Positions 1-50,863 of a stretch of DNA of 64,000 bases are shown here, piece by piece. A program made the translations under genes and the position numbers. Positions within the stretch are counted from its first letter, which is position 1, and each line of letters starts with the position of its first letter. The notes under the pieces are model-generated. The model was not told the DNA's origin. It made no database searches and saw only the letters and a list, made by a program, of their open reading frames with translations. This stretch comes from SAR324 cluster bacterium (lineage in GTDB: Bacteria > SAR324 > NAC60-12): NCBI GenBank assembly GCA_015232315.1, contig JADFZZ010000021.1, forward strand, positions 2,006-66,005. Direction: 5' to 3'.

Positions 1-1990
1 GTAAACCCGTCAAATTCAGGAAAATAACCTGAGAAATTCCAAAACCCATTAAAAAGACACCACATAAGCCAAGAAGCGCGGGAGTGAGCATAATCGCGAA
101 CGTTGTGTTCATATTGGAATGAAATTCATCGGCAATCTTGAATACGAGTTCCAGATGATGTAACCCGCTATCCAATAAAATAATCTGCGCTGTGTCTGTG
201 GCAATGGTAGAGGCGCCGCGCATGGAGATCGAAACTTGTGCTTTTTTCAGTGCGATTGAATCATTAATGCCGTCTCCGATATAACAGATAAAATGACCTT
301 CCTTTTGCAGTTGTTCAATAAGATCCGCTTTCTTTTCCGGCAGGCACTGCGCAAAATAGTGATCAATTCCCAGTTCCCGCGCTAATTTTTTCGTGGGAAT
401 TTCATGATCACCCGAGATAATATACATGGATTTGATATTCTTGCGTCGTTTGAGTTGACGGATCACTTTTCTTGCTTCCTCACGTATTGTTGTCAGCAGT
501 TCAATTCCCCCTATGACCTGGTGATCCACAGCGACCATGACCAGGGAATCGCCTTCTTCATGACTGATTTGCTGTTGTTTCGCCAAAATTCCGGGAATGG
601 TCATACCGGACATTTCCATAAACCGTTGACTGCCCACATGCACCGTTTTTCCATCCACAACCACAAGGACTCCATAACCAGCCTTGAACTGACTTTCATC
701 GAAGGACGGTATGCTTAACTGGCGTTTTTTAACCTCTTTCAGAATGGCTTTAGCCAGGGGATGGGTTTGTTTGGATTCAGCGGCACCGGCATAAACCAGC
801 ACCTCCTCTTCGCTGAAATGCGAGCAACAATGAATCTGGCCGATATGCGGCTGTTCCTCAGTCAAGGTGCCTGTTTTATCAAACACGATCGTATCCACCT
901 GTTGCAGTAACTCAAAAGTGCGTCCATCCTTAATCAGAATTCCCTGCTGGGATGCAATGTTGGTATAATTCAGGATGGTTGTAGGGGCAATGACCATCAT
1001 TTTATTTTTGGGGTGCGTATAAATGACAGCGAGCGCGCCACTGAAGCCAACGATCGGTAAGGCAACCCCTCCGGCGATTAAGGCGGGTTTCACCAAATTA
1101 TCCGAAAGGGTTTGCGCTCGTAATTGCTGTGTTGATTTATAGTCAATGGTATTGTTCAGAATATTGGTGATTTTTGCCACGGTACAATCCTGACCGGCTT
1201 TTTCCACTTTAATATAGATTTTCCCTGATAAAATAACTGTTGCCGCAAAAACTCCATCTCCCTGTTCTTTTTCAATGGGCCGTGCCTCGCCTGTCAGAAT
1301 ATGTTCATCAATGCTCGCGATGCCCTCAACAATAATCCCATCCGCGGGAATCACTTCACCTGCCTGAACCACGACAATATCATCCACACCAAGATCGTTG
1401 AACGGTATTTCAGTTTCAACCTGATTCACCACAATCCAGACTTTTTCGGGCTGTTGATAAACAACATCGAACAATGCCTGTTTGGATGTTTGAACCACTT
1501 TTTCCATAAGCCTCATTGCGGCCCTGATGACAACAAGAATCAGGCTTGCCGCAAAAAATTTTCCTGTGATGACACATCCCGCGATGGTAATACTCATGAG
1601 TGTGCTGACATGGACTTTTTTCTGTTTGATCAGTTCATAGCTTTTTTTGAAGGTCTCCTGACTGGCGTACATAATGAAAGGAAGACTGAGCACGGCAACA
1701 CCAGGGTAGACAAACCCGGCAAGGCAAAGTCCAAAGGCGGACCAGATCGCCAGAAAGTCATACATTTTTTTCTTTTCAGCATTTTTATGGATCAGCTCAT
1801 ACTTTGTCTCTGATTTTTGAATTTGTTGAGAATCCTCTTTAAACATTTGCGTGACTTTATCCTGAATGCCGGTTTTGATTTCAGGCGAGTCATTCGTTTT
1901 GACAGGAAGTTCACCTTCCTCCATACTTTTTATGTATTCCTGATAACCCACATATAAGATTCCGCCCAAAGCGATCGCTTCAAAAATCAT
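1..1990 (-). CDS. P-type ATPase. The catalytic core resembles P1B ATPases, but there is no N-terminal metal-binding domain and no CPC motif. The N-terminus is at 1990 and the C-terminus lies beyond the window start.
   Basis: The reverse-strand translation begins MIFEAIALGG. It contains VDTIVFDKTGTLT (phosphorylation motif), ISGDHE, LPEKK and GDGINDSIAL. AGGAG sits 7 nt upstream of the ATG. The ATG overlaps the TGA of the upstream R gene (ATGA). The N-terminal 25 aa are similar to those of the ATPase at 48800-50863. Confidence 0.8.
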   Translation of the reverse strand, partial: MIFEAIALGGILYVGYQEYIKSMEEGELPVKTNDSPEIKTGIQDKVTQMFKEDSQQIQKSETKYELIHKNAEKKKMYDFLAIWSAFGLCLAGFVYPGVAVLSLPFIMYASQETFKKSYELIKQKKVHVSTLMSITIAGCVITGKFFAASLILVVIRAAMRLMEKVVQTSKQALFDVVYQQPEKVWIVVNQVETEIPFNDLGVDDIVVVQAGEVIPADGIIVEGIASIDEHILTGEARPIEKEQGDGVFAATVILSGKIYIKVEKAGQDCTVAKITNILNNTIDYKSTQQLRAQTLSDNLVKPALIAGGVALPIVGFSGALAVIYTHPKNKMMVIAPTTILNYTNIASQQGILIKDGRTFELLQQVDTIVFDKTGTLTEEQPHIGQIHCCSHFSEEEVLVYAGAAESKQTHPLAKAILKEVKKRQLSIPSFDESQFKAGYGVLVVVDGKTVHVGSQRFMEMSGMTIPGILAKQQQISHEEGDSLVMVAVDHQVIGGIELLTTIREEARKVIRQLKRRKNIKSMYIISGDHEIPTKKLARELGIDHYFAQCLPEKKADLIEQLQKEGHFICYIGDGINDSIALKKAQVSISMRGASTIATDTAQIILLDSGLHHLELVFKIADEFHSNMNTTFAIMLTPALLGLCGVFLMGFGISQVIFLNLTGL

Positions 1991-3168
1991 AATTCTCCTT
2001 TGTGAATATACCCGCTCTTGTGAAAATATGAAAAATAGGTGGACAGCAAATTCACATCCAGGGGGGGGCAATGAATACCGGAACCCGCTAACCCTTCCTG
2101 CGTGAGGCCATCTTGAAATCGGGGTTTGTTTTCAGAAAAAAAAGCTGAGAGTCTAAGCATCAGCAATATTCGGGAATATAGCTCCTCTTTCGGCTTGGCT
2201 GAAGCACGTTTTTTTAATTGGACGGTCCAATCTTTTTCGCTGACTTCTTCCAGTGAATAACCCAGAGTCCGTACATGTTCAAAAAATACTTTCCAGGAAA
2301 TGGACTGCGCGTTCAATAAATGAAATACCTTTCCAAACGATTCCTGTTGGTTTGATAAACGACAGATGGCCTGACTGATATAGTCCACAGGCGCAACATT
2401 GACTTCGACATCCGCGATAGGAAAGGTGCCCATTTGAATACAGCTTTTCAGCAGACCACACAAGGAATCATTGAGATTCCCCATAATCCCGGTTTGAGTA
2501 TGTCCCCAGACTCTTCCGACTCGATGAAGGGTGGCAGGCAACCCTCTCTTTTGCGCGGTCAATACCAGTTGTTCCGCAACCCATTTACTTTGTCGGTAGC
2601 CACCACTCAAAGTTTTTCCATCAGGAATAGCCGTTTCAGTGATATCCGCGTTATGGTGAGCAGGACTGAAAAATACGGCAATACTGGAAATGAAATGAAC
2701 CGGTTTTGTTTGGGTCATGCCTGCTAAACGAAGCACTTCCTGTGTGCCCAGCACATTTGGCTTTTTCAAATCAGCGTAAGGACGCGCCGCGTTCACTTGC
2801 GCGCCATTATGATAAATCACCTCAATACAACGGGATAAATCACCAAACTGAGATTCTGAAAGCCCTAAGAAGGGTTGAGACAAATCCCCAACGACAGGAA
2901 TGATCCGGGAATGGTACCTCTCGTTCCACAGTTGGTAAAACTGCAACTGCCTGGTTAAACGCTGTTTTCCTTCGTCAGAATCACGACAACGAACCAGACA
3001 ATAAATATCGGCCTGTGTTTCATTGAGGAGCACCTGCAACAAATAGGCGCCAATAAAACCTGAAGCACCTGTCAAAAAAACCGAAGGGGGATTCTGCCAG
3101 TTTTTGGCTAAAGGCCCTTGAAACTGAATGTTGGTGTCTAAAACAGCTTCCGTTTCCAAATCGATCAT
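1987..3168 (-). CDS. Stand-alone thioester reductase (an SDR resembling an NRPS/PKS terminal R domain).
   Basis: 393 aa. NAD(P)-binding motif TGASGFIGAYL and catalytic YRQSK. Its order and size match the fused R domain at the end of the ORF at 43088-46102. The start overlaps the stop of the aminotransferase gene (ATGA). Confidence 0.8.
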   Translation of the reverse strand: MIDLETEAVLDTNIQFQGPLAKNWQNPPSVFLTGASGFIGAYLLQVLLNETQADIYCLVRCRDSDEGKQRLTRQLQFYQLWNERYHSRIIPVVGDLSQPFLGLSESQFGDLSRCIEVIYHNGAQVNAARPYADLKKPNVLGTQEVLRLAGMTQTKPVHFISSIAVFFSPAHHNADITETAIPDGKTLSGGYRQSKWVAEQLVLTAQKRGLPATLHRVGRVWGHTQTGIMGNLNDSLCGLLKSCIQMGTFPIADVEVNVAPVDYISQAICRLSNQQESFGKVFHLLNAQSISWKVFFEHVRTLGYSLEEVSEKDWTVQLKKRASAKPKEELYSRILLMLRLSAFFSENKPRFQDGLTQEGLAGSGIHCPPLDVNLLSTYFSYFHKSGYIHKGEL

Positions 3169-4514
3169 GCGATTCCGGTCATGGAACGTTTCACCTGAGC
3201 GATGCTGGATTCCAAAGTGGCGACCAACTCATCACATTCACTCTCTGTAATGACAAATGGGGGGGAAATCAATATGTGATCCCCATCCTTGCCTGTTCCT
3301 GTACCAAACCGACCTCTGAGAATCAGCCCGTTATCGAGAGCTTTCTGAACCACTTGTTCGGTGAGTTTCATGGAACGGGGAAACGGTTGATGCGTTGTTT
3401 GATCCTGAACAAATTCAATCCCGATCAGCAGACCCTTACCACGGACATTACCAATGAGAGGCTCTCGCCCAGCCAGTTTTTCCAGTTCTTTTTTCAGATA
3501 AAGCCCCATGGAGGCGCAACGCTCAATCAGATTATGTCGCACGATGTAGTTCTGAACAGCCAGGGCCGTGGCACAACTGACAGGATGTCCGGAGTAGGTT
3601 ACCCAGGCGGGAATGGTATCTTTATTGTTTTTAACAAATAGTTCCCATATCCGTTTATGCACAATAGTGGCTCCAATGGGTGCGTAACCACTGCTCAGGC
3701 CTTTTGCGCCTGTAATGATATCGGGGATTGCGTTCCAGTGTTCAATGCCAAAATTTTTGCCCGTTCGTCCAAATCCGGTAACCACTTCTTCGGAAATAAA
3801 CAAAACATCGTATTGATCACAGATTTCCCTGATTCTTTCATAATACCCAGGAGGCGGGACAATCCCGCTCCCTGCTCCGCCAATAATCGGTTCAGCGATA
3901 AAAGCGGCGACCGTGTCGGGGCCTTCCTTTTCGATCGTGGTTGCCAATTCATCAGCACAGGCGAGAGCACAATCCGGGTGGGTGAGTTGAAACGGACACT
4001 GATAACAATGAGGGGCGTGAATATGCGGAAAATTCAACTCGTAAGGCGCCATCACATCCCGTTGCACAAACACGCTCCCGGACATGGATAAGGCCGCGAC
4101 CGTCCGTCCGTGATAACTATGCCAACGGCCAATGATCTTCCATTTTTGGCTATTTCCCTGTTCAATATGATAGTGTCTGGCGATCAGCAGTGCGAGTTCA
4201 TTCGCGACGGAGCCACCCGTGGCAAAAGCCACCCGATCCATGCCTTCCGGAGCCATGTCAATAATGACATCCGCAAGCTGTTCCTGCGATTCGTGGGCAA
4301 ATTGCATTTTGTTCACAAACGCGATTTTACGTGATTGCTCCGCCATGGCCTCCGCGATTTCAGGAACACCATGTCCAATGGAAACCACATGGGTTCCGCC
4401 AATACCATCCAGATAACGTTTGCCATCGGTGTCATAAATATAAACGCCTTCACCGCGTTCCGCGAAAGGACGAGGTTTTTTACTGAAAAAAACATGAGAT
4501 TCCGAGTGTTTCAT
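3165..4514 (-). CDS. Class-III PLP-dependent aminotransferase (omega-transaminase-like).
   Basis: 449 aa. Motifs FISEEVVTGFGRTG and DIITGAKGLSSGY (PLP lysine). There is an AAGGA RBS and an ATG start. It lies directly downstream of the megasynthase. Confidence 0.85.
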   Translation of the reverse strand: MKHSESHVFFSKKPRPFAERGEGVYIYDTDGKRYLDGIGGTHVVSIGHGVPEIAEAMAEQSRKIAFVNKMQFAHESQEQLADVIIDMAPEGMDRVAFATGGSVANELALLIARHYHIEQGNSQKWKIIGRWHSYHGRTVAALSMSGSVFVQRDVMAPYELNFPHIHAPHCYQCPFQLTHPDCALACADELATTIEKEGPDTVAAFIAEPIIGGAGSGIVPPPGYYERIREICDQYDVLFISEEVVTGFGRTGKNFGIEHWNAIPDIITGAKGLSSGYAPIGATIVHKRIWELFVKNNKDTIPAWVTYSGHPVSCATALAVQNYIVRHNLIERCASMGLYLKKELEKLAGREPLIGNVRGKGLLIGIEFVQDQTTHQPFPRSMKLTEQVVQKALDNGLILRGRFGTGTGKDGDHILISPPFVITESECDELVATLESSIAQVKRSMTGIA

Positions 4515-29891: not shown

Positions 29892-29914
29892 ATATTCTCC
29901 TTTGAATCAGAAAA

Positions 29915-31087: not shown

Positions 31088-31090
31088 AGA

Positions 31091-31495: not shown

Positions 31496-31507
31496 AGGTT
31501 ATACACG

Positions 31508-33488: not shown

Positions 33489-33947
33489 TTACAATATTTT
33501 TTTTTCAAAAGAAACTCCCGCTTCATTCTCGAGTCGTCGCAGTGTTTCGCCAAGATAGAACATCACATCCTGTAACGGTTTTTCATTGTCTTGCAGGAAA
33601 CGATAAAAATCGTCACTTTCCAGATACAGTAACGTACATTTTTCCAAGCATAAAATCGTATATTTCGCAGGTTGGGGGGTGAGCAATTCGAAGCACCCCC
33701 AATACTCACCCTTTTGCAGGATTCCATATTCATTTTCAAGGCCGATCTGACACCGACCATCAATCAACATAAACAGTTTTGTGTTCATTCGGTCTTTTTC
33801 TGTCACCATGGTTTCCGCTTCAATTATTAACAGATGCAGAAATTCACTGATTGTGACCAGATATTCCTCTGGAATCCATTGAAACAGAGGAATTTGTTTC
33901 AACCATTCAATTTTATCGATTTTCAGCAATTTCGGGGTGTCATTCAT
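33489..33947 (-). CDS. Stand-alone cyclic-nucleotide-binding (CAP effector) domain protein with no DNA-binding domain.
   Basis: 152 aa. cNMP-binding fold motifs LFMLIDGRCQIG...GEYWGCFELL. Overlaps the upstream gene by 4 nt (ATGA). Confidence 0.7.
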   Translation of the reverse strand: MNDTPKLLKIDKIEWLKQIPLFQWIPEEYLVTISEFLHLLIIEAETMVTEKDRMNTKLFMLIDGRCQIGLENEYGILQKGEYWGCFELLTPQPAKYTILCLEKCTLLYLESDDFYRFLQDNEKPLQDVMFYLGETLRRLENEAGVSFEKKIL

Positions 33948-37693: not shown

Positions 37694-39288
37694 GTCACCA
37701 ACTTTCCTTCTTCCATCCTGATCTGTTGATCTGCGAGATCATAATAATGATCATCATGTGAAACCACAATCACGATCTTCCCCCTGGCTTTTAACTGTGG
37801 AAGAAATTCATGATAAAACGCATCCCGAAACACGGGATCCTGATCGGCGGCCCATTCATCGAACACATAGACCGGTTTTTCTTCAATCAAGGCCAGTATC
37901 AAGGCCAGTCGACGTCGCTGGCCTGAAGATAAACTGTAATTTGAAAATTTATCTTCGTGAAATTCAGTTTTATGATCCAGGTGCATTTTAGACAACAATT
38001 CTTTCATTTGATCGGTATTTACGGGCTGGTCAGAATAAACCCTGTCAAACAGATGATAATCAGAAAATACCGCGGAAATCCATTCGCGCTGAACTCCCGC
38101 GGGTATGAGATGGGTGTTTCTGTAAACAGCGCCCTTACCTGGCGTATATAATCCCGTGAGCACTTTCACTAACGTAGATTTTCCGCTGCCATTGCCGCCA
38201 GTGATGAAATAAATATTGCCCGGTTGAAAGGTCAGGTTTATCGGCCCCAGGGTGAACAGGTGTTTCTTCTGAGCATCAAGATATTCAAACTGGATCTCTT
38301 CAAACCGGATCTCAGTCAACTCTTCCTGAACAAACGCTTCAGTGCCGGTCAAGGATTCCTGTCGTAAGTCCATAATTTCATCTTCCAACTCAAGGATCTT
38401 CCGCACAGAAAGGTTTGCAGTGGTTACCAGCGGCACAGCCTCCATCAAACGCCATAAGGGAATATATAAAACAATAGCGACCGCGGCGATCATGACCTCT
38501 TTGGTGATAACGCCGAACGTGGGCAATACATACACCACAATGATGATCAGAAAATTCCAGAACAGGAGGGTAAAGAGGTAATTCTTGTCAAATTCGGTTC
38601 CTACCTTTATTTTGACATCCCTCATTTGATCCAGTTCACGACACAATTCAAGATGATAGTAATCATCATTTTTCGCGTCATTCATGCGCAGTTCCTTAAA
38701 ACCGAAAATCTGATGCTGAATCGCGTTGAAGAGTTGGCGTTCCTGCTCTCGGCCTTTCTCAATAAAGGTTTGAATACTTGTCTGATGCAGATAATAAACA
38801 ACGATACAAACCAGCATAATAAGGGCAGTGATCAGCGCGACCTTGAACGAGATCCAGGCCAGAAAAATCAGAACCCCCAGAAAGATCACAAAATCGGTGA
38901 GCAGATAAGCTAATACATGGGAGGCATCAAGAATAACATCCATATCATAGGTTAACACATTGTTGATCTGGGATTTTTCAATTTTCTCAAAATCCCGCAA
39001 AGAGATTTTTCGTAAATGATCCAGTATTCCGTTGCGTATTTTTTCAAGAATTTCGTGAACCATTTGAAGAAGCTGGTTCTGTTGAAAACGATAGCTGACC
39101 ATCCACAATATCCAGCCTATAATGAACAGATTCGGGCGTATGGATATTTCCTGATTTTCATAATAGGCGATAGAACCAGCCAGAAAAGAAAACAGCCAAC
39201 TCATCAATCCCCCGGTGAGAATGGAGGATCCTATCAATAAACGAAATTTTTCAGGATTATGTTCCTGAAGTAAACGAAGGAGTTCCAT
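37690..39288 (-). CDS. ABC exporter half-transporter (TMD-NBD) of the SyrD/cyclic-peptide-transporter type.
   Basis: N-terminal 6-TM domain. Walker A GGNGSGKST. Signature LSSGQRRRLAL. Walker B region VYVFDEWAADQDPVFR, the family-typical DEWAADQDP motif. Confidence 0.85.
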   Translation of the reverse strand: MELLRLLQEHNPEKFRLLIGSSILTGGLMSWLFSFLAGSIAYYENQEISIRPNLFIIGWILWMVSYRFQQNQLLQMVHEILEKIRNGILDHLRKISLRDFEKIEKSQINNVLTYDMDVILDASHVLAYLLTDFVIFLGVLIFLAWISFKVALITALIMLVCIVVYYLHQTSIQTFIEKGREQERQLFNAIQHQIFGFKELRMNDAKNDDYYHLELCRELDQMRDVKIKVGTEFDKNYLFTLLFWNFLIIIVVYVLPTFGVITKEVMIAAVAIVLYIPLWRLMEAVPLVTTANLSVRKILELEDEIMDLRQESLTGTEAFVQEELTEIRFEEIQFEYLDAQKKHLFTLGPINLTFQPGNIYFITGGNGSGKSTLVKVLTGLYTPGKGAVYRNTHLIPAGVQREWISAVFSDYHLFDRVYSDQPVNTDQMKELLSKMHLDHKTEFHEDKFSNYSLSSGQRRRLALILALIEEKPVYVFDEWAADQDPVFRDAFYHEFLPQLKARGKIVIVVSHDDHYYDLADQQIRMEEGKLVT

Positions 39289-40882
39289 TGCTGATTTGCC
39301 CTTGCTCCATGGTTAATATTGTATCGGCAAGATGAAAGAAACGATCATCATGACTAATGACAAGAATCACTTTGTTTTGCTGTTTTAAGCGAGGAAGCAG
39401 TGTTTCATAAAAGTACAAACGAAATTTATGATCCTGTTCCGCGGCCCATTCATCAAAAATCACAATAGGCATATCCTCAAGCAATGCCCCAATCATCGCG
39501 AGTCTTTTTCTTTGCCCGGCGGAGAGCTTTATATTAGAAAATTTTCCATTTCCCCAATCCGTTTTGTTGTTGAGAGCCATCTCATCCAACAGCGAATAGA
39601 TCTGTTCTGCCTGAATATTTTCAATGCCGTATAACCCTTCAAACAAATGATAATCCGAAAAAATACAGGATGATAAATAGCGATAATCGCGCAAAGAGAC
39701 GATGGATTCATTCAAGAAAATCTGTCCTGCGGATGGTTCATAAAGTCCGGTGATGATTTTAACAAGCGTCGATTTTCCACTGCCATTCCCCCCAACCAGA
39801 AAGGTGATATGACCCGATCTCAATGTCATATTGACTGGTCCGATGACAAAGCCTTCCTCTTCCGGATATTGAAACTGAACATTCTCCAGACGCAGTGAAT
39901 GGATCTCAGGATTGATTTTGGGACGGATAGAGACATAGTCCGACAGTTCGGGTTTCTGATTGCGTAACATTTCATCCAGCTTATACAACCGATCCAGTGC
40001 GGCATCGCCCGTTGTGATAAAGGGCAAGGACGTATTGAACATTCTGACAGGCCCCCAGCACATGACAATCGCTGTCATGATTTCAGTTACAGTCTGTAAT
40101 GGCAGAAATATGGAAAAAATGAAAATTTCTGTAGCCAGAAACATAAAAAAGGCGCCATCCAGAAATAATTCAGTTTTACCGAATAACCGTGAAGAATTTA
40201 TTCCCTGATTTTTTAGTTGCTTGGCCAGGGGCATCAATTCATTGGAAAAAAAGAAATTACTTTTTTTTTCGCTTAATTTGAGTTCCTTAAAGCCATCCAG
40301 CAACTGCCCCATCACATGAAAGAAGCGGGATTCGGTGTCTGACATGGATTTCTGCTCACCCGCTATCAAATATCGACTTCCTGAGTAAACCCCCAGACCC
40401 ATGAGAAAAGTAATGAACACCGCGATCGCGACAGAAGAGGAAAGATGGACAACATACAGGAAACAGAATCCCACAAGCGTATAGGTCTGTAGCAGATTGA
40501 TATGATAACGCGCGGCCCGGGAAATGGACCGTGCGTCCTTGGTCATGGTCATGTAGAGATCTGAAATCTGATACCGTTCCAACTCAGACAGTTCCGACTG
40601 GCGTAACGCGTTCCCGATGCGTTGTCTCACTTGCTGCATCGTAAAATGAATTAATCGCGTATTCCTGTTCAGCGCAAACCATTTACTGCTTACATAAATG
40701 ATGGAACATACCAGATACACTCCTAGAAAATAAATATCAGATACATCCCACTGCAGGTCTCTTGTGGAATCATTAATAACAATCACCAGTCCGCCACCGG
40801 AGATCCCCGCGATCGCGGACAAACTCAACAATTTGATTTTTTCTTTCTGATTCTCTTTGCCAAACAGATTTGTCAGATTCAT
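39257..40882 (-). CDS. ABC exporter half-transporter (TMD-NBD) of the SyrD/cyclic-peptide-transporter type, partner of the ORF at 37690-39288.
   Basis: Walker A GGNGSGKST. Signature LSAGQRKRLAM. Walker B region IVIFDEWAAEQDHKFR. Overlaps the downstream paralogue by 32 nt. Confidence 0.85.
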   Translation of the reverse strand: MNLTNLFGKENQKEKIKLLSLSAIAGISGGGLVIVINDSTRDLQWDVSDIYFLGVYLVCSIIYVSSKWFALNRNTRLIHFTMQQVRQRIGNALRQSELSELERYQISDLYMTMTKDARSISRAARYHINLLQTYTLVGFCFLYVVHLSSSVAIAVFITFLMGLGVYSGSRYLIAGEQKSMSDTESRFFHVMGQLLDGFKELKLSEKKSNFFFSNELMPLAKQLKNQGINSSRLFGKTELFLDGAFFMFLATEIFIFSIFLPLQTVTEIMTAIVMCWGPVRMFNTSLPFITTGDAALDRLYKLDEMLRNQKPELSDYVSIRPKINPEIHSLRLENVQFQYPEEEGFVIGPVNMTLRSGHITFLVGGNGSGKSTLVKIITGLYEPSAGQIFLNESIVSLRDYRYLSSCIFSDYHLFEGLYGIENIQAEQIYSLLDEMALNNKTDWGNGKFSNIKLSAGQRKRLAMIGALLEDMPIVIFDEWAAEQDHKFRLYFYETLLPRLKQQNKVILVISHDDRFFHLADTILTMEQGQISNGTPSFTSGT

Positions 40883-42118: not shown

Positions 42119-42182
42119 TCGAGGAATCCCTGGAGACCATTCTCGATGAATGCAAACACCGCGGTATCACAAAGGAGCATTT

Positions 42183-42413
42183 ATGAATACAGCGACCATT
42201 CACATACCTGAAACATTACCCAGTGAGATAGTACAAGGATTGATTCAAGAATTTGAAAAAATGCTTGAATCAAAAGCTAATGAAGTGAATAGCCAGGAAT
42301 GGGCGAACTTAGTCGAAAGTGAGCAATCTCAAGCATGGTTGGAAGCTATGGTTGCTCAAGTGGATATTGAACACAGCGCAGAGAAAACAGAGAAGGGTGG
42401 ATGGAACAGATAA
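42183..42413 (+). CDS. Putative antitoxin of a type II TA pair (76 aa).
   Basis: AAGGAG RBS. Small and acidic. Its stop overlaps the start of the downstream RelE/ParE-like ORF. Family not recognised. Confidence 0.35.
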   Translation: MNTATIHIPETLPSEIVQGLIQEFEKMLESKANEVNSQEWANLVESEQSQAWLEAMVAQVDIEHSAEKTEKGGWNR

Positions 42414-42700
42414 AATCTTATCGCTCATCTCAATTTAAAAAATCCTTTGAAAAACTTCCTTTATCTGTGCAAGAGCAGGCTAAAAAAGCCTACGCTCTTT
42501 GGAGCGATAACCCTTTTCATAATTCCCTTGAATTCAAGGTTATCAATAAGAAATTAGATGTTTATTCCGCAAGAATTAGCCTGAATTGGAGAGTGTTAGG
42601 ACTTTTTTAAGGAGGCTTCCCCACCAGCGGTAGGGAACCACAAAATATTCGTAACGATTGGAAGAAAGGAGCAAGTATATGATTATTCGCACGTTATCCG
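42401..42700 (+). pseudogene. RelE/ParE-like toxin gene interrupted by a frameshift in a T6 run.
   Basis: The track ORF at 42401-42610 encodes ...VYSARISLNWRVLGLF and then stops. The next frame continues as ...KEASPPAVGNHKIFVTIGRKEQVYD, which resembles the conserved RelE C-terminal ...IGHRKDVY. The T run is at about 42603-42608. The reconstructed protein would be about 101 aa. Confidence 0.4.
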
Positions 42701-43065
42701 ATATTGAACAGACTGACCGTGATGTTGCCTGGGGGAATGGACAAAGCCGAAGATTTCTCATTGCCAGTGACGGAATGGGTTTCACGTTGACGGATACTGT
42801 CGTTCTGGCGGGTTCAGAATCAAGATTGCAATATCGTAATCACGTTGAAGCTTGTTATTGCATTGAAGGCGAAGGGGAAGTTGAGGTGGATGGTAAAATT
42901 TACCCGATCAAGACCGGCACAATGTATGCGCCAAATCAACACGATATTCATTATCTTCGAGCGACTAAGACAATGCGTCTGGTGTGTGTGTTTTCGCCTG
43001 CGTTACAAGGCCCTGAATCCCATCAACTGCAACACACAGACAATCCTTCCGCCTCAAGTTATTAA
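42679..43065 (+). CDS. Ectoine-synthase (EctC)-like cupin.
   Basis: 128 aa. MIIRTLSDIEQTDRDV...EACYCIEGEGEVEVDGKIYPIKTGTMYAPNQHDIHYLRATKTMRLVCVFSP aligns along its length with Halomonas EctC (MIVRNLEEA..TDR...EAVYCIEGEGEVE...DGKIWPIKPGDIY.LDQHDEH.LRA.KTM.L.CVF.P). AAAGGAG RBS. Confidence 0.85.
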   Translation: MIIRTLSDIEQTDRDVAWGNGQSRRFLIASDGMGFTLTDTVVLAGSESRLQYRNHVEACYCIEGEGEVEVDGKIYPIKTGTMYAPNQHDIHYLRATKTMRLVCVFSPALQGPESHQLQHTDNPSASSY

Positions 43066-46124: not shown

Positions 46125-47432
46125 ATGCTGAATAAATCACCAAAATCGCGTGCTTTTTTCGAACGTGCGCAAAAAGTTATTCCTTATGGTGTCAGTTCCA
46201 GTCATCGTTACTGGGGCGATTATACCCCGGTATTGCAACGTGGAAATGGAGCGTATGTGTATGATTTCGATGGCAATCGTTATATTGATTACCGTCTGGG
46301 GTTTGGGCCTGTCATTCTGGGACACGCTCATCCTTACGTCAATCAGCGAGTCATGGAAGCGATCCAGCAGGGGGTTACATTTGCGGCGACCCAACCCTAT
46401 GAAGTCAGTGTCGCGGAACGCATTATCGCTATGTGCCCGTTTGTTGACATGGTACGACTGGACAACACCGGTTCCGATGCGACACGGCATGCGTTACGCC
46501 TTGCCCGTGGTTACACCGGACGAGACCTGGTGGTAAAATTTGAAGGTGCCTATCATGGCGATTACGATTACATGTTATGGACCACTCCGGACAGCATGAA
46601 AAGTCAGGTAGGCAACCGCAACCGGCCAATTCCCCATAAAACCAGTTTGGGTGTGCCCGATCTGCTGGCGCAGTTGCTCCTGCCCGCCGTATGGAATGAT
46701 CGCGAAGGGATCACCGCCTTATTGCAGGAAAAAGGTGATGCCATTGCGGCTATTATTGTTGAACCCATCCTGGCTAATGCCGGAGGTTTAATGCCTGCGC
46801 CAGGATTTCTGGAATTTTTACGCACACAATGTGATCAATATGGCATTGTCCTCATTTTTGATGAAGTCAAAACTGGATTTCGGATTGCACCTGGTGGCGC
46901 CAGTGAATATTTTGGCGTGATTCCGGATATTGTCACCTATGCCAAAGCAATGGCCAATGGATATCCTGTCTCTGCCGTGGGCGGAAAACGCAAGATCATG
47001 ATGGCACTGGCGCCTGGCAAAGTCGTTCATGCGGGAACCTACAACGGAAACGTCGTGGTCACTTCCGCCGCTGACGCAACCCTGGAATATATGCAGACTC
47101 ATGATGTATTTGGTCATCTCAATCAGATTGGCCGGCAACTCATGGATGGACTGGGCGAAATTCTTTCCCGCCACAGTATCCCGCATCATATCCATGGAGT
47201 GCCCGCTTTATTTGGATTGACGTTGTCCACAAACAATCCCACGGATTGGCGTCAGGTGGTGGATACCAATCTGGAGTTATCAGAGAAACTCCTCATGGAA
47301 TTGGTCAATGCCGGTATCATGACTGATTCTGATCCCCAGCAAACCTGGTATGTGTGTGACGCCCATACCACCGAGGATATTGCCGAGACACTTGATAAAT
47401 TTGAAATTGCCTTACGCAATGCAAAGAATTAA
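46125..47432 (+). CDS. Class-III aminotransferase of the glutamate-1-semialdehyde aminomutase (HemL)-like subfamily.
   Basis: Motifs RLDNTGSDATRHALRLARGYTGRDLVVKFEGAYHGDYD, IFDEVKTGFR and TYAKAMANGYP (PLP lysine region). Confidence 0.85.
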   Translation: MLNKSPKSRAFFERAQKVIPYGVSSSHRYWGDYTPVLQRGNGAYVYDFDGNRYIDYRLGFGPVILGHAHPYVNQRVMEAIQQGVTFAATQPYEVSVAERIIAMCPFVDMVRLDNTGSDATRHALRLARGYTGRDLVVKFEGAYHGDYDYMLWTTPDSMKSQVGNRNRPIPHKTSLGVPDLLAQLLLPAVWNDREGITALLQEKGDAIAAIIVEPILANAGGLMPAPGFLEFLRTQCDQYGIVLIFDEVKTGFRIAPGGASEYFGVIPDIVTYAKAMANGYPVSAVGGKRKIMMALAPGKVVHAGTYNGNVVVTSAADATLEYMQTHDVFGHLNQIGRQLMDGLGEILSRHSIPHHIHGVPALFGLTLSTNNPTDWRQVVDTNLELSEKLLMELVNAGIMTDSDPQQTWYVCDAHTTEDIAETLDKFEIALRNAKN

Positions 47433-47497: not shown

Positions 47498-48619
47498 ATG
47501 AGTGTTGCTGTCAACAGTTATAATGAATGGTCCCCCTTAAAGGAAGTCATTGTAGGTTCGGCCTATAACTACACATTGCCGCCGATTGATCAGTCCTTCA
47601 AATTATTTTATCATGATCTGATCAATCCCAAATTCCCTCTCGAAGGCACACGCGTACTCAAGCAACAATATGTCGAGGAATTGGAGGAGGATCTCAATAA
47701 TCTGGTCGCGGTTTTTGAACAACTGGGAGTCAAAGTACACCGTCCTGCACAATTGCCTGAAGCCTCTGTCATTCGCACGCCTTACTGGGAATCAACCGCG
47801 TTGGCCGCACTGAATATCCGTGATCAGGCGATTATCGCTGGTAATGAAATCATTGAAACCGCTCCGATGCTACGTTCCAGATATTTTGAAAATGATTTGC
47901 TCAAACCTGTTTTTTACGAGTATTTCAAGGCCGGTTCCAAATGGACACTGATGCCCAGACCGATGATGCTGGAAAAATCGTTTGATTTATCCTATGTGGC
48001 GCATCCTGAAGAGGGTATTAAGAACGCTTATGATATTAATAACCTTGCCCGTGATTACCCACAGCCGTCTTCTCCCTACGATATAGGATACGAATTGCTG
48101 TTCGATGGCGCTCAATGTATGCGTTTTGGTGAGGACTGGATCGTTGATGTTTCCAACTACAACCATGAATTGGGTTTTCAGTGGCTTCAACGACATTTTG
48201 AAGGAAAAATCAGGATGCACAAACTGGATAAAATCACTGACAATCATATTGATACCACCGTGATCCCTCTACGGCCAGGCACTCTGTTAATGCGCTACCC
48301 CCAGGATGTCAAAAAATTGCCTGCGGCCCTGCAGAAATGGGATATTCTGTATATCCCTGAGCCCGATATGAAAAACTTTCCCCAATACGATGACGATGAT
48401 TTGGTGTTATCCAGTAATCTGATTGATGCCAATGTATTTTCAGTGGATGGCGATAAAATGATTGTTAATTCCTTGTACCCTGAATTAATCAAGTTGCTTG
48501 ACAAACACAAATTTACCACCATTCCGGTACGCCATCGCCATCGCCAACTGGTGAGTGGCGGTTTTCATTGTTTTACCCTGGATACCGTTCGGGCCGGTGG
48601 CATGGAAAAATATTTTTAA
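47498..48619 (+). CDS. Amidinotransferase (glycine/inosamine amidinotransferase family: AGAT, StrB1, CyrA, SxtG-like).
   Basis: SYNEWSPLKEVIVG corresponds to AGAT SYNEWDPLEEVIVG. Also GNEIIETAPMLRSRYFE. His motif HIDTTV. Active-site Cys motif SGGFHCFTLD (AGAT GGGFHCWTCD). Confidence 0.85.
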   Translation: MSVAVNSYNEWSPLKEVIVGSAYNYTLPPIDQSFKLFYHDLINPKFPLEGTRVLKQQYVEELEEDLNNLVAVFEQLGVKVHRPAQLPEASVIRTPYWESTALAALNIRDQAIIAGNEIIETAPMLRSRYFENDLLKPVFYEYFKAGSKWTLMPRPMMLEKSFDLSYVAHPEEGIKNAYDINNLARDYPQPSSPYDIGYELLFDGAQCMRFGEDWIVDVSNYNHELGFQWLQRHFEGKIRMHKLDKITDNHIDTTVIPLRPGTLLMRYPQDVKKLPAALQKWDILYIPEPDMKNFPQYDDDDLVLSSNLIDANVFSVDGDKMIVNSLYPELIKLLDKHKFTTIPVRHRHRQLVSGGFHCFTLDTVRAGGMEKYF

Positions 48620-48681
48620 CGAGTCACCTCATATTTAAATTGCACGGGTTAAGATTCTTTTTGAAATCATGTCATCCTGAG

Positions 48682-48799: not shown

Positions 48800-50863
48800 T
48801 CACGCGGAATGGGAATCTTCCTCCACCAGGAGCTCTGATGATTTCTGACGATTCTTCATGAGAGGAAGCATCGCATTGACAGATCCTGCGCCCACACTGG
48901 TTATAAACAAAATCACCGAAGCCAGAATTTTGAAGTTAAACAGGAATATTCCGGTAATTCCGATGGCACCGGGAATGATGGCGGTTAAAAAACCATGACG
49001 TGTATTGTCAGCCATTTCCGTAGCCAGTTCAAACAGAGTCGGAACATGTTTCAGCGTATGATCCATCAAAACGATACCGGCAGTATCCAGGGCCGCAGTC
49101 GATGCACCCTGAATGGAAACCGACACATTAGCCGTTTTTAAGGCGACTGTGTCATTGATGCCATCCCCTATAAAACATATTGATTTTCCCTGTAGTTGAA
49201 GTTCCTGAATAATTTTTGCTTTATCCTGGGGCAATACTTCTGAAAAATAATGCTCAATGCCTAGCTCCTGAGCCAGTTTGCGGGTAGGTGCTTCATGATC
49301 TCCGGAGATAATATAGGTGGCGAGTCCCAGTTCCTTGAGTCGCCCGATCACAGATTGTGCTTCAGGACGTAAGGAAACATGGAGTTCCAGAATGCCAATC
49401 AATTGCTGGTTGCAGGCCACATACACCAGTCCGTAACCATTGTCTTCAGCCGTTTGTCGGATTTTCTGAACCAGTGCGCCGGGAGAGAGTGAGATCGCTT
49501 CGTTCGTCATAAAACGCTCACTTCCCACATGAATCTGAGCGGTTCCCACTTTCACCTTAATGCCGTACCCGATTTCATAAAGAGCATCCTCAATCTCCGG
49601 TATCATGATCTGGCACGCCTTAGCCTGTTTGACAATGGCTTTGGCAATGGGGTGTGACTGTTTATGTTCTGCCGCCGCCGCATATTGCAGAATCACTTCT
49701 TCCGGTTCATCATTCAGGAGGTAAATCTGACCCACTTGAGGCTCCTCCAGGGTCAGGGTTCCCGTCTTGTCAAACACAACCGTATCCACGTCCTTTAATA
49801 ATTCCAGACAGCGTCCATCCTTCACCAGAATCCCCTGCTCGGACGCAAGTCTCAGATAATTCAATACTCCCAGGGGAACCGTCATTCGGGTGGTCTCCAT
49901 AAAGTTACAACTGACCATGGCTGTGGCACTGATCGGTCCCATCATCGCCCATGTCACCCCACCCATCGCAATGGTTGGACCTGCCAGCATATCCGCGAAC
50001 TGGATGGTTCTGGCTTCCACAGAGGACTTGAAATCAGCCGTATTCTGTAAAATCCTGCCGATCTTGGCCGCCGAGGTTTCACTGGCTTCATGAACCACCT
50101 TTACCTGAATTTTTCCGCTAATCACCATCGTGGCGGCAAGCACGGAATCACCGGATACTTTTTCTACCGGTTGAGACTCTCCTGTCAGAATATGTTGATC
50201 GACCGAAGCAAAGCCCTGCACCACGATCCCGTCAATCGGAATCATTTCACCAGCCTGAAGGATAATGATATCTCCCGACTTCAGGGTTTCAAACGGAATT
50301 TCGATCTCTGTCCCTTCCTTGAACAACCAGACAAATTGAGGCTGCTGACCAAAAATATTTATCATTTGTTTTTTGGACATATCCTCTGTTTTGAGCAACA
50401 GTTTGTTGCTTAAAAAAAAGGCAATGGATGCCAGTGATCCAATCCAGTAATATCCGGTAGCAAAGGTTCCTACGATGGCAATGCTGTCCACCGCACTGGC
50501 TCGAATCCGTTTTTCATGTATCAGATTATGAAAGGTGTCTTTGAATATGGGCAGGCTGACATAGATGAGCAAGGGCAGGGTAATCAGATTGATGGGCGTA
50601 TAAACCAATGCGCCCAGTGTTGCTGTTCCCAAAGTAACGCCAGCGACTTTTATATAATGATCGAGTTCCTCCTCAGTCTCCTTATGGGACAGAACCTTTG
50701 AAGATTCCGGAATGATTGGAATGTTCGGTTCTTGTTCTCCGGAATCGGATAAAGAGAGTTTTTCAGAAACCAGAATGGGCTTGGAGGTTGGGTTTTCGCC
50801 TTCTTTGTAGGCGGAATATCCGGCATAAGCCAATCCGCCTAAAATCAATATTGCTGGAAGCAT
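48800..50863 (-). CDS. P-type ATPase (687 aa), paralogue of the ATPase at 1-1990.
   Basis: Motifs VVFDKTGTLT, ISGDHEAPTRKLAQELGIEHYFSEVLPQDKAKIIQELQ and GDGINDTVAL. There is no N-terminal heavy-metal-associated domain and no CPC motif in the TM region. The N-terminus MLPAILILGGLAYAGYSAY resembles that of the other copy. Confidence 0.85.
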   Translation of the reverse strand: MLPAILILGGLAYAGYSAYKEGENPTSKPILVSEKLSLSDSGEQEPNIPIIPESSKVLSHKETEEELDHYIKVAGVTLGTATLGALVYTPINLITLPLLIYVSLPIFKDTFHNLIHEKRIRASAVDSIAIVGTFATGYYWIGSLASIAFFLSNKLLLKTEDMSKKQMINIFGQQPQFVWLFKEGTEIEIPFETLKSGDIIILQAGEMIPIDGIVVQGFASVDQHILTGESQPVEKVSGDSVLAATMVISGKIQVKVVHEASETSAAKIGRILQNTADFKSSVEARTIQFADMLAGPTIAMGGVTWAMMGPISATAMVSCNFMETTRMTVPLGVLNYLRLASEQGILVKDGRCLELLKDVDTVVFDKTGTLTLEEPQVGQIYLLNDEPEEVILQYAAAAEHKQSHPIAKAIVKQAKACQIMIPEIEDALYEIGYGIKVKVGTAQIHVGSERFMTNEAISLSPGALVQKIRQTAEDNGYGLVYVACNQQLIGILELHVSLRPEAQSVIGRLKELGLATYIISGDHEAPTRKLAQELGIEHYFSEVLPQDKAKIIQELQLQGKSICFIGDGINDTVALKTANVSVSIQGASTAALDTAGIVLMDHTLKHVPTLFELATEMADNTRHGFLTAIIPGAIGITGIFLFNFKILASVILFITSVGAGSVNAMLPLMKNRQKSSELLVEEDSHSA

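Follow-up and report, generated by a model that had tools for sequence, protein, structure and literature searches.

One split cluster or two biosynthetic units? A megasynthase operon and a rare amidinotransferase cassette on a SAR324 contig

Contig JADFZZ010000021.1 of a SAR324 cluster bacterium (assembly GCA_015232315.1) carries a megasynthase operon and, further to the right, an amidinotransferase cassette. Do these two arms belong to one pathway? An earlier note, made from the sequence alone, had taken them as one split cluster. We analyzed the whole stretch of 64,000 nucleotides (the window) and compared its genes with other genomes. With confidence a little better than even, a figure that covers the whole explanation and its proposed chemistry, we favor two independently inherited biosynthetic units in the 50-kb stretch. 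The left unit looks like a widespread "sulfated aryl-amine" cassette to which a PKS has been added. The right unit is a rare four-gene cassette, and its product is probably a small cyclic amidine or guanidine. Both units look undescribed.

Gene content and layout of the window

The genes named in the earlier note were recovered by Pfam, NCBIfam and PDB matches at or near the places it gave, almost line by line (Table 1). The anaerobic sulfatase maturase (anSME), the sulfatase, about 11 kb of LRR, HEAT, Band7, DUF697 and cNMP-binding genes, and the ParE-like pair were absent from it. The left operon is tightly packed. About 15 kb of unrelated genes separates the two units. GC content forms three blocks along the window and is 0.40–0.42 in the intervening genes (26743..37693) versus 0.46–0.50 in the left operon. 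None of these intervening genes lay beside either cassette in the fetched loci, save one weak DUF697 match (L039). The right unit is flanked by the ParE-like pair and an IS element. The pair lies directly upstream of ectC, and a twofold direct repeat at 42038–42110 was read in the sequence 5' of it. On its right side, the right-hand island may end at the IS4/5-family transposase. For both units, the identities of the genes, their motifs, synteny and recurrence are direct observations.

The two bracketing P-type ATPases are both real and are paralogous, as claimed before (41% identical over 667 aa by tblastn). The left one contains DKTGT and lacks the CPx motif, and its start overlaps the stop of the reductase gene. 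The right one is convergent with its cassette and lacks both the HMA domain and the CPx motif; its homologs adjoin amidinotransferases in eight other loci. Each unit has a CPx-less P-type ATPase of its own, which presumably transports a charged product.

Table 1. Positions of the units and genes in the window, with the matches that identify them
Feature	Position	Strand	Basis and remarks
Left unit (unit L)	2-26,593		Minus-strand operon + divergent unknown/anSME/sulfatase set
Unit L operon		-	ST1-ACP-HemN-like rSAM-ST2-chorismate lyase-ligase-megasynthase-aminotransferase-reductase-P-type ATPase
P-type ATPase, left paralog	2..1990	-	Partial, C-terminus off window; last gene of left operon
Stand-alone thioester reductase (R)	1987..3168	-	NAD_binding_4 1e-63; TIGR01746 317 bits vs cut-off 213
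Class-III (omega-type) aminotransferase AT1	3165..4514	-	Aminotran_3 3e-94
Megasynthase, 4085 aa	4551..16808	-	A (McyG/StsA-type)-KR0-PCP-KS-AT (malonyl)-DH-KR-C-MT-ACP-C; order from Pfam
Free adenylate-forming ligase	16862..18301	-	AMP-binding domains (Pfam)
Rv2949c/UbiC-like chorismate pyruvate-lyase	18352..18918	-	PF01947 5e-18
Sulfotransfer_2 sulfotransferase	19072-19785	-	Pfam
HemN-like radical SAM	19760-21103	-	Pfam
ACP	21090-21353	-	Pfam
Sulfotransfer_1 sulfotransferase	21368-22267	-	Pfam
Conserved unknown protein	22682-23209	+	Divergent from left operon
anSME	23215-24363	+	TIGR03942 404 bits vs cut-off 349
Sulfatase	24716-26593	+	Sulfatase Pfam match 3e-44
LRR protein, three unknowns, Band7, DUF697, cNMP-binding protein, 1249-aa HEAT-repeat protein	26743..37693		Pfam
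SyrD-type "cyclic peptide export" ABC permease/ATPase pair	37690..40882	-	TIGR01194 320 and 294 bits vs cut-off 286
Right unit (unit R)	about 42,150-50,863		EctC-type cupin, A-PCP-R, GntE-type transaminase, amidinotransferase + convergent P-type ATPase
Two small overlapping ORFs, candidate ParE-like toxin/antitoxin pair	42150..42610	+	ParE_like 6e-5, just under Pfam cut-off
EctC-type cupin, 128 aa, W18/T38 subtype	42679..43065	+	NF009806 156 bits vs cut-off 128
NRPS-like A-PCP-R, about 1004 aa	43088..46102	+	Pfam; TIGR01733 and TIGR01746 both above cut-offs; start codon read from sequence
GntE-type class-III transaminase	46125..47432	+	NF041362 (GntE equivalog) 1e-211, 703 bits vs cut-off 525
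Amidinotransferase, AGAT/SxtG/StrB1 family	47498..48619	+	2e-51 to SxtG 6u1r, 2e-50 to StrB1, 6e-48 to AGAT
P-type ATPase, right paralog	48800..50863	-	E1-E2_ATPase and Hydrolase domains; TIGR01525 378 bits vs cut-off 346
IS4/5-family transposase	53284..54162	-	DUF4096 + DDE_Tnp_1

The left operon and its cassette in other genomes

The loading A domain of the megasynthase matched McyG (4r0m) at 5e-187 and StsA (6ulw) at 1e-162. It had been labeled a FAAL; a loading adenylation domain is present, but its closest similarity is to the McyG/StsA type, and a classical FAAL was rejected. In the first KR, compared with StsA, the catalytic Tyr is replaced by Phe and the Asn by Ser. Judged by these residues the domain is dead, in agreement with the earlier KR0 label. 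The TACSTS, HGTGT, GHSVG, HAFH and HHIVMDV motifs are intact. The MT domain matched C-methyltransferases only, so the methoxy group proposed before is unsupported. The terminal C domain is LCL-like. For the C-terminal 886 aa, no close ortholog was found among the matches listed, the best being 51% identical over 61% of the query. A 97%-identical copy of the megasynthase is present on contig 53 of MAG GCA_015231535.1. Over the right cassette, the contigs of this MAG match the window at 99.98% identity, and over the left arm at 97.16%. The difference agrees with separate inheritance of the units, but mixed strains in one bin could also account for it.

All left operon genes but the megasynthase recurred as a cassette, with 61–87% identity, in bacteria without this PKS. 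In Deltaproteobacteria TL4 (L167), anSME (81%), the unknown protein (67%), ST1, ACP, HemN, ST2, lyase and ligase were present at 67–87% and no PKS was found; the first two are paired with the cassette, and the four-gene order ST1/ACP/HemN/ST2 is kept at 69–87%. Locus L170 contains ACP, HemN, ST2, lyase, ligase, P-type ATPase (61%), R (69%), AT1 (70%) and ST1 (62%, at a different position), within a range of 61–77%. A ThDP enzyme was present and a PKS absent in the stretch read there. R and AT1 accompany the lyase/ligase/ACP cassette in L170, not the PKS. ACP, HemN and ST2 also stand together in Kentrum (L169), as in L170, with the order kept and 70–77% identity; the Kentrum cassette is accompanied by two P-type ATPases. 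The free ligase has 344 relatives and is found beside the ACP, rSAM and ST2 genes throughout L167–L170. The lyase gene adjoins the same genes in L167, L170 and Scytonema (L168), with a partial match in L169, at 55–74% identity. The Scytonema cassette adjoins an NRPS whose terminal C domain shares 40% identity with the C domain of the megasynthase. The HemN-like protein also barely passed the HemW cut-off (207.6 vs 205.4 bits).

From the sequence, we infer the substrates, step order and products of both units. In the left unit, the lyase would turn chorismate into 4-hydroxybenzoate. The free ligase is its predicted activator and would load it onto the free ACP, where the HemN-like radical SAM enzyme would modify the ring. 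The stand-alone reductase would release an aldehyde, the aminotransferase would convert it to a benzylamine, and the sulfotransferases would O-sulfate it. The 4085-aa megasynthase would have been inserted into this widespread cassette in the present genome. Its A domain with the dead KR may load a non-amino acid, followed by one malonate extension and C-methylation, reduction and dehydration of the chain. The terminal C domain would then form the amide bond between the chain and the amine made by the cassette. In the expected product, an α-methyl-enoyl chain is joined through an amide to a sulfated benzylamine that originates from 4-hydroxybenzoate. This scheme is favored by the association of R and AT1 with the cassette, by the Scytonema NRPS with its related C domain and by the intact megasynthase motifs.

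The right cassette and its possible product

The right cassette also occurs on its own, in one metagenome lineage and in Ectothiorhodospiraceae BW-2 (L002). In the complete BW-2 genome (CP032507.1) it is a compact operon, with identities of 72% for EctC, 59% for A-PCP-R, 83% for the transaminase and 87% for the amidinotransferase. Housekeeping, signaling and IS genes occupy the flanks read, which reach 5.2 kb upstream of ectC and 10 kb downstream of the amidinotransferase. Locus L004 has the same four genes and a P-type ATPase. Among 5.8 billion proteins, only three protein clusters reached 74% identity or more to the amidinotransferase. The four-gene combination is very rare, and literature searches found no characterized pathway with this set, as the earlier note had stated.

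The EctC-type protein is 52% identical to P. lautus EctC (5onn, 3e-36). It retains the iron ligands E57, Y84 and H92, carries Thr in place of N38, and has Trp at position 18 instead of 21. The A-PCP-R protein has the specificity code DIQYIAHVTK, identical in BW-2, and retains D235 and K517. This code agrees at 7 of 10 positions with the proline code, DVQLIAHVVK. Its top NCBIfam match was MxcG, and the cassette resembles the MxcG type in that reductive release would be followed by transamination. The aminotransferase had been called HemL-like; it is an aminotransferase, and the label is refined to GntE by the equivalog cut-off. In the guanitoxin pathway, the aldehyde used by GntE is a cyclic-guanidine carbaldehyde. 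The substrate aldehyde of GntE arises in the retro-aldol step of GntG (PMC10367076). A Pfam search gave no match for the amidinotransferase, and its H250, D252 and C358 are invariant in nine aligned relatives.

These features suggest a route from a cyclic imino acid through an aldehyde and an aminomethyl group to a guanidine. A-PCP-R, with its proline-like code, would reduce the carboxylate to the aldehyde, the GntE-type transaminase would make the aminomethyl group, and the amidinotransferase would convert it to the guanidine. The EctC-type enzyme would provide or finish the cyclic amidine or imino ring, and may act at the first or the last step. A candidate ring is 5-amino-3,4-dihydro-2H-pyrrole-2-carboxylate from glutamine. 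Athv28, an EctC homolog in a BGC, converts glutamine to a proline-like cyclic amidine (PMC8627960).

Two more specific schemes were weighed. If EctC acted last, reduction and transamination of proline or a similar imino acid would give 2-(aminomethyl)pyrrolidine, which would be amidinated; the ring nitrogen would then attack the guanidino carbon, and EctC would close a bicyclic guanidine. The proline-like code agrees with this, a carboxylate-free substrate would fit the absence of the carboxylate-binding Asn38, and GntE-type transaminases act on N-heterocycle carbaldehydes (family from the NCBIfam match, substrate from the guanitoxin pathway). However, ammonia displacement from guanidine is known for no EctC-type enzyme, ectC is the first operon gene both here and in BW-2, and the direct precedent is of EctC-type enzymes making the cyclic imino acid precursor (PMC8627960). 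We consider this scheme quite unlikely. Very unlikely, in our judgment, is an ectoine-pathway variant leading to a "guanidino-ectoine" compatible solute. Here A-PCP-R would stand in for Ask/Asd (Asp to aspartate semialdehyde), the transaminase for EctB (to diaminobutyrate) and the amidinotransferase for EctA, and EctC would close a 2-amino-tetrahydropyrimidine-4-carboxylate ring. It parallels the EctABC pathway (PMC5924519) step for step, the EctC-type protein exceeds the NCBIfam ectoine synthase cut-off with its iron ligands retained, and the adjacent ion-pump genes would suit a role in osmotic stress. Yet D235/K517 and the proline-like code suggest that an imino acid is activated at its α-carboxyl, rather than Asp at its side chain, and the transaminase is GntE/HemL-like, not EctB-like. 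In addition, N38, the carboxylate-binding residue of EctC (PMC6344544), is Thr in all three cassette copies, and no precedent was found for an EctC reaction in which a guanidino group loses ammonia.

One pathway or two

In a single split pathway, the megasynthase C domain would acylate an amino acid bound to the PCP of A-PCP-R, R would free an N-acyl amino aldehyde, the right transaminase and amidinotransferase would build a guanidine terminus, EctC would cyclize it and the sulfotransferases would decorate it. Both arms lie within 50 kb between the paralogous ATPases, and the SyrD-type exporter pair sits between them; no such pair adjoins the right cassette in BW-2. An LCL-like C domain normally requires an aminoacyl-PCP acceptor. 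The megasynthase ends in such a domain without a cognate A-PCP in the left arm, and the only amino-acid-type A-PCP of the window, which holds its sole A domain retaining D235 and K517, is in the right arm. Against this, A-PCP-R begins at its A domain, with no space for docking or a C domain, and the left arm's own reductase and aminotransferase would be redundant. The ~15 kb of unrelated genes, the GC shift and the ParE-like pair also separate the arms. In BW-2 the right four genes are a complete operon, and the flanks read contained no C domain or PKS. Provided that all BW-2 proteins are in the protein database, BW-2 has no ortholog of the ligase among its 120 best relatives, each at least 52% identical, and none of the megasynthase C-terminus among the relatives listed. 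Conversely, L167, L169 and L170 carry the left accessory cassette without EctC, A-PCP-R, GntE-type transaminase or amidinotransferase, in loci read with flanks of up to 10 kb, the arms here being 16–24 kb apart. The two cassettes recur apart from each other, and thus a single split cluster was not supported; recurrence was the refuting test that the earlier note itself had named, and it goes against co-inheritance of the arms. We regard the split pathway as unlikely.

With two independently inherited units as the preferred reading, the product guessed before is divided: O-sulfation is plausible for the left unit, and the right unit could plausibly make a small molecule of its own that ends in a guanidine or cyclic amidine. 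The two arms may still interact functionally. Counting towards such a link are the LCL-like C domain together with the lone amino-acid-type A-PCP, the paralogy of the P-type ATPases, and an amidinotransferase-like gene (34% identity) inside the aryl-sulfate cassette of Scytonema. The known Microcystis aeruginoguanidines, in which sulfated aromatic units occur together with guanidines (PMC12371840), are a further point in its favor.

Separate recurrence of the two units

The earlier note had read the two arms as one split NRPS–PKS cluster. Its gene inventory was borne out by the ORF listing and family searches (see table). Recurrence, the test that it had named for a single pathway, showed that the two units recur separately.

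The four genes of the right cassette formed a compact operon in Ectothiorhodospiraceae bacterium BW-2, which we take to be a cultured strain. Identities to the window proteins were 72% (EctC), 59% (A-PCP-R), 83% (transaminase), and 87% (amidinotransferase), the last being the closest relative of the window enzyme. The BW-2 flanks (5.2 kb upstream of ectC and 10 kb downstream of the amidinotransferase gene) contained RNase HII, GGDEF/EAL, DUF423, IS66, and chemotaxis genes; flanks of other genomes were examined to 10 kb, and the units of the window are 16–24 kb apart. None of the best 120 ligase relatives, each at least 52% identical, was from BW-2, and none of the listed relatives of the megasynthase C-terminus (query, the C-terminal 886 aa) was either. 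A metagenome lineage (L003/L004) also carried the four cassette genes, with an adjoining P-type ATPase gene. The hosts of the four-gene cassette were the SAR324-labelled MAG and the gammaproteobacterium BW-2.

Among left-type loci, EctC, A-PCP-R, and the GntE-type transaminase were absent from Deltaproteobacteria TL4 (L167), Scytonema (L168), Kentrum (L169), and locus L170. In a GTDB scan with the amidinotransferase alignment, EctC adjoined the amidinotransferase at 0 of 80 loci. A metagenome scan with the EctC alignment, using search patterns biased to the W18 subtype, gave 80 EctC-type loci as the nearest relatives. Neither an amidinotransferase nor a GntE-type transaminase was near any of them, so these loci held no further cassette copies.

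The single-pathway interpretation is thus not supported by recurrence. GC content ran in three blocks, 0.46–0.50 in the left operon, 0.40–0.42 at 18–42 kb, and 0.44–0.49 in the right unit. Genes at 26.7–37.7 kb encode LRR, HEAT, Band7, DUF697, and cNMP-binding proteins, which accompany neither cassette elsewhere. The ParE-like pair and repeat near ectC and the IS4/5 transposase gene at 53.3 kb, described below, also speak for two units. Alignment with the SAR324-labelled MAG (GCA_015231535.1) gave 1 differing base in 4493 for the right cassette (window 44389–48881; 99.98% identity) and 336 mismatches in 12.2 kb for the left arm (window 6859–19074; 97.16% identity). The two units may have had separate histories, or the bin may mix strains; either could account for the unequal identities. 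A functional link between the arms is nevertheless conceivable, mainly because the left arm offers no cognate aminoacyl-PCP to the terminal C domain of the megasynthase.

Features of the left and right units (window coordinates)
Feature	Coordinates	Strand	Basis or remark
Left P-type ATPase	1990..2	-	start overlaps reductase stop codon; gene exits window edge
Stand-alone thioester reductase	1987-3168	-	family search
Class-III aminotransferase (AT1)	3165-4514	-	family search
4085-aa megasynthase	4551-16808	-	family search
Adenylate-forming ligase	16862-18301	-	family search
Rv2949c/UbiC-like chorismate lyase	18352-18918	-	family search
Sulfotransfer_2 (ST2)	19072-19785	-	family search
HemN-like radical SAM enzyme	19760-21103	-	family search
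ACP	21090-21353	-	family search
Sulfotransfer_1 (ST1)	21368-22267	-	family search
Conserved unknown protein	22682-23209	+	divergent from left operon, with anSME and sulfatase
EctC-type cupin	42679-43065	+	NF009806, 156 bits vs cut-off 128
A-PCP-R	about 43088-46102	+	Pfam; start read in sequence
Class-III (GntE-type) aminotransferase	46125-47432	+	NF041362, 1e-211, 703 bits vs cut-off 525
Amidinotransferase	right arm, after aminotransferase	+	no Pfam hit; matches solved amidinotransferases
Right P-type ATPase	48800-50863	-	TIGR01525, 378 bits vs cut-off 346

Enzymes and proposed route of the right cassette

The EctC-like assignment of the earlier note held, as the cupin passed the NF009806 cut-off and has the iron ligands. 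Glu57, Tyr84, and His92 stand at the ligand positions of P. lautus EctC, and most substrate-contact residues are kept. The cupins of the window, BW-2, and L004 have Trp at 18, Gly at 21, and Thr at 38, whereas bona fide EctC has Trp21 and Asn38. Asn38 of EctC binds the carboxylate (PMC6344544). From these features, the cupin was assigned to the "solitary" EctC proteins, a type described as functionally unresolved (PMC5924519). Its surroundings also differ from those of ectoine EctABC: ectA and ectB were absent, as the cassette has no acetyltransferase and its transaminase matches GntE and then HemL. One EctC homolog with another reaction is Athv28, which converts glutamine to the proline-like cyclic amidine ADPC within the anthelvencin BGC (PMC8627960). 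The window cupin likewise sits in a biosynthetic locus, with A-PCP-R, GntE-type transaminase, and amidinotransferase as partners rather than ATP-grasp or a pyrrolamide assembly line.

In the metagenome scan, W18/T38-type EctC-like genes with an A-domain gene directly upstream were observed at L110, L125, L126, L133, L143, L146–L148, L155–L157, and L164. Their A domains share the code DL[LF]QIT[VI]DSK. Such pairs seem to be a further EctC-type arrangement, also undescribed and different from the window cassette. As the code differs from that of the window, these A domains do not back a proline-like reading.

Pfam placed A, PCP, and thioester reductase domains of A-PCP-R in that order, and TIGR01733 and TIGR01746 exceeded their cut-offs. 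The code of its A domain is DIQYIAHVTK, with D235 and K517 kept, and BW-2 has the same code. It equals what we take to be the proline code (DVQLIAHVVK) at 7 of 10 positions. On this code, the substrate is suggested to be a cyclic imino acid activated at the α-carboxylate. The best NCBIfam match was MxcG (622 bits), far below the equivalog cut-off of 2300. As in the myxochelin pair MxcG/MxcL, a terminal thioester reductase is followed by a class-III aminotransferase that yields an amine. Unlike MxcG, presumably specific for lysine, the window protein has no C domain and has a proline-like code.

The transaminase had been called HemL-like. It is a class-III enzyme, and GntE was the best match, with its equivalog cut-off passed and HemL second. 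We assume that the GntE substrate is a cyclic-guanidine carbaldehyde. The window enzyme would likewise be expected to convert an aldehyde next to an N-heterocycle to an aminomethyl group. In guanitoxin biosynthesis, GntE acts after a retro-aldol step (PMC10367076). That aldehyde comes from cleavage of hydroxy-enduracididine, whereas here it is proposed to come from an NRPS-like reductase, in a non-cyanobacterial host. The other gnt genes (hydroxylases, PLP cyclase/aldolase, N-/O-methyltransferase, kinase) were absent among 20 NCBIfam-scanned window proteins, and the Pfam domains encoded around the cassette did not fit the remaining gnt genes. A tblastn search of plasmids with the transaminase gave no match above 40% identity.

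The amidinotransferase belongs to the AGAT family, as the earlier note had proposed. Full-length similarity was found to SxtG (6u1r, 2e-51), StrB1 (1bwd, 2e-50), and AGAT (2jdx, 6e-48). Fold and conserved His/Asp/Cys are common to SxtG, CyrA, StrB1, HsvA, and the window enzyme, with E-values of 1e-43 to 2e-51. SxtG and HsvA amidinate primary amines. H250, D252, and C358 were invariant in the alignment of relatives, and C358 aligns with the SxtG cysteine named catalytic in PMC12371840. Close relatives were rare: only 3 protein clusters among 5.8 billion proteins were at least 74% identical, the next ones were at most 58% identical, and identity to the nearest general relatives was only about 55%. 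At two loci with 74% relatives (L005 and L006), KS, XisH/XisI-like, and ATPase genes precede the amidinotransferase gene. In L005 a pyruvoyl-type histidine decarboxylase gene and a P-type ATPase gene come next, and in L006 the contig stops just beyond the amidinotransferase gene. EctC, A-PCP-R, and the transaminase were absent from both loci. These contexts differ from the cassette, indicating that this amidinotransferase clade is used in at least two gene contexts.

In the proposed route, the EctC-type enzyme would form a cyclic amidine imino acid. A-PCP-R would reduce it to the aldehyde by MxcG-type reductive release, the GntE-type transaminase would convert the aldehyde to an aminomethyl compound, and the amidinotransferase would add the guanidine. 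Two variants are possible. EctC may act last, on a path from proline to a bicyclic guanidine, or the cassette may make a "guanidino-ectoine". Both agree less well than the EctC-first route with the A-domain code, the transaminase type, or known EctC chemistry. Rfam and tRNA scans gave zero matches, so a guanidine riboswitch upstream of the cassette is absent.

We tentatively propose, as a reading that is doubtful at present, that the cassette may make a small dicationic alkaloid of the cyclic amidine/guanidine kind by a route not yet described, with a guanitoxin-like aminomethyl-N-heterocycle core, outside cyanobacteria, and that the CPx-less ATPases may be a new pump class for charged organic metabolites, not metals. 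If the cassette works as proposed, it would give one subgroup of the "solitary" EctC-type proteins a role. Ectoine-synthase chemistry would then have been recruited to alkaloid-like metabolism, alongside a guanitoxin-type transaminase. The earlier view that no known pathway has the right-arm gene set stood, as no description was found in the literature on EctC plus amidinotransferase. The literature on the left cassette's gene set also gave none. Neither unit was found described in the accessible literature, and each combines well-known enzyme logic in a new way.

Left operon and the aryl-sulfate cassette

From ST1 to the reductase, the left operon genes lie on the minus strand in transcription order, and neighbours either overlap or are separated by no more than 153 nt. 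Genes for an anaerobic sulfatase maturase (anSME; TIGR03942, 404 bits against 349) and a sulfatase are divergent from the operon.

The domain analysis of the megasynthase changed the earlier reading in part. Its loading A domain had been called a FAAL. The best matches were McyG (4r0m, 5e-187, 626 bits) and the keto-acid A domain of StsA (6ulx/6ulw, ~1e-162, 546 bits), and named FAALs gave at most 185 bits; the FAAL reading was therefore dropped. Position 235 of this domain is Ala, so its substrate is something other than an amino acid. Alignment of the first KR with that of StsA (4e-64) showed Phe and Ser in place of Tyr and Asn of the StsA ...YCAAN motif. Taking these two residues as catalytic, we consider the KR inactive, in agreement with the "KR0" of the earlier note. 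The A-KR region is thus McyG/StsA-like, the difference being the loss of the catalytic Tyr and Asn from its KR. The MT domain matched C-methyltransferases only (DisA 6cca, 2e-79, then AprA MT2, CurJ, PsoF, CitS, and LovB). No O-MT was among its matches, and the "methoxy" polyketide suggested previously is not predicted.

The KS, AT, and carrier motifs were intact. The KS has TACSTS, HGTGT, and NVGH, with its Cys-His-His intact, and the malonyl-type AT has GHSVG and HAFH. Both carrier domains keep their serines (GGHSL and GVDSL). The C domain has HHIVMDV, with Val where Gly is usual. Two A10-like stretches without the lysine were seen, ...LPLTDDGQLD... and ...MPLTEDGAIDR..., at residues 1–110 (before the loading A domain) and about 1270–1300 (after KR0). 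As judged from the sequence, they are consistent with a remnant "pseudo-A-sub" layout of keto-acid modules.

The accessory genes of the operon, here called the aryl-sulfate cassette, were widespread. The ligase had 344 relatives. In TL4, the anSME–unknown–ST1–ACP–HemN–ST2–lyase–ligase block is kept at 67–87% identity, without a PKS. The order in L170 is ACP–HemN–ST2–lyase–ligase–ST–P-type ATPase–ST–reductase–ThDP enzyme–aminotransferase–ST1. Its genes are 61–77% identical to those of the window (reductase 69%, AT1 70%, left ATPase 61%), and no PKS was found within the 17.6 kb examined. Kentrum has the cassette and two P-type ATPases. In Scytonema the cassette adjoins an NRPS that also has a terminal C domain, 40% identical to that of the megasynthase. 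The ligase locus of Halobeggiatoa is at a contig end. The cassette hosts were sulfur bacteria, the SAR324-labelled MAG, and cyanobacteria. In relatives, a ThDP enzyme or an NRPS occupies the position of the megasynthase. Across the compared loci, the reductase and AT1 genes co-travel with the lyase, ligase, and ACP genes, not with a PKS. The most economical reading is therefore an aryl-amine route.

In this aryl-amine route, the lyase would convert chorismate to 4-hydroxybenzoate, and the ligase would load it onto the free ACP. The HemN-like enzyme (class C radical SAM methyltransferase-like) may modify the ACP-bound aryl unit. The stand-alone reductase would release the free aldehyde, and AT1 would convert it to a benzylamine, which the two sulfotransferases would sulfate. 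The sulfatase and anSME may serve in sulfate removal or recycling. The megasynthase would extend a non-amino acid starter to an α-methyl-α,β-unsaturated acyl chain, and its terminal C domain would form an amide bond between this chain and the cassette amine. This linkage is backed by the Scytonema NRPS, which likewise ends in a C domain beside the cassette. In relatives with a ThDP enzyme, if the aldehyde underwent carboligation first and transamination second, the product would be an aryl-hydroxy-propylamine, presumably resembling the Hphpa unit of aeruginoguanidines.

Two known systems were compared. The mycobacterial p-hydroxybenzoate route to phenolic glycolipids (Rv2949c, FadD22, Pks15/1) also has an Rv2949c-family lyase, an adenylating enzyme, a carrier, and an adjoining type I PKS. 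In contrast to it, the aryl thioester in the window would be on a discrete ACP, with a reductase, a transaminase, and sulfotransferases, and the PKS carries a McyG-type loader of its own and a terminal C domain. The Microcystis agd clusters (aeruginoguanidine/microguanidine), known by the gene roles in PMC12371840, share sulfotransferases and a sulfatase. Aeruginoguanidines combine a sulfated aromatic amine unit with guanidine chemistry (PMC12371840). Scytonema resembles them in coupling the same cassette to an NRPS. An arginine-activating A domain and a prenyltransferase, both agd features, were absent among scanned ORFs of 1–50,863. The cassette is common, yet as far as the literature was found, no product has been assigned outside Microcystis-type compounds. 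In its behaviour it is a portable building block, a "sulfated aryl-amine" module to which varied assembly lines connect (PKS here, NRPS in Scytonema).

In Scytonema sp. NUACC26, a 381-aa amidinotransferase-like protein (L168, 15008–16153) is encoded inside the aryl-sulfate cassette, near the C-domain-ended NRPS. Its identity to the window enzyme is 34%, and its ADI-superfamily Pfam matches are weak. This was the sole place where an amidinotransferase was truly interleaved among the cassette genes.

P-type ATPases and neighbouring genes

The two P-type ATPases had been described as paralogs bracketing one cluster. The paralogy is real (41% identity over 667 aa). Both copies passed the heavy-metal P1B model, and DKTGT is present. 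The CPx position, which varies among homologs, reads CNF in the right ATPase and THP in the left, and Pfam gave no HMA match in either. Homologs adjoin amidinotransferases in Thiomargarita, Thioploca, Thiotrichaceae, Chloroflexota, and other loci, which also hold FAD, FMO, and P450 oxidoreductases, methyltransferases, and sulfotransferases. They also occur inside the aryl-sulfate cassette (ligase/ACP/rSAM/sulfotransferase) in L169 and L170. As homologs were found in both settings, it is more apt to assign one paralog to each unit than to see the pair as bracketing one cluster. CPx-less, HMA-less P1B-like ATPases were seen in the window pair and in L004, L005, L009, L015, L020, L025, L039, L055, L169, and L170. 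Adjoining both cassette families, the CPx-less P-type ATPases offer a lead for transporter biology. ORFs 404–718(+) and 1301–1813(+), antisense to the left ATPase gene, were regarded as spurious.

The SyrD-type exporter pair of the earlier note was recovered, as both ABC proteins (37690–40882) were above the TIGR01194 "cyclic peptide export" cut-off. A perfect twofold direct repeat, CCGAACGGTGGATGTCGTTGATTGGATACAACCACCGGA, lies at 42038–42110. Two small overlapping ORFs (42150–42610) follow it immediately upstream of ectC, and the second is weakly ParE-like. Downstream of the right unit are an IS4/5 transposase gene (53284–54162(-)) and a short phage-integrase-family ORF (60392–60961(-)). A DAHP synthase gene (55104–56258(+)), for entry to the shikimate pathway, is 36 kb from the chorismate lyase gene and adjoins housekeeping yceD and plsX. 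It may supply precursor specifically, or it may be no more than a core gene. A 556-aa protein (61808–63478(-)) combines CsgG/LpoB-like and FGE-sulfatase domains.
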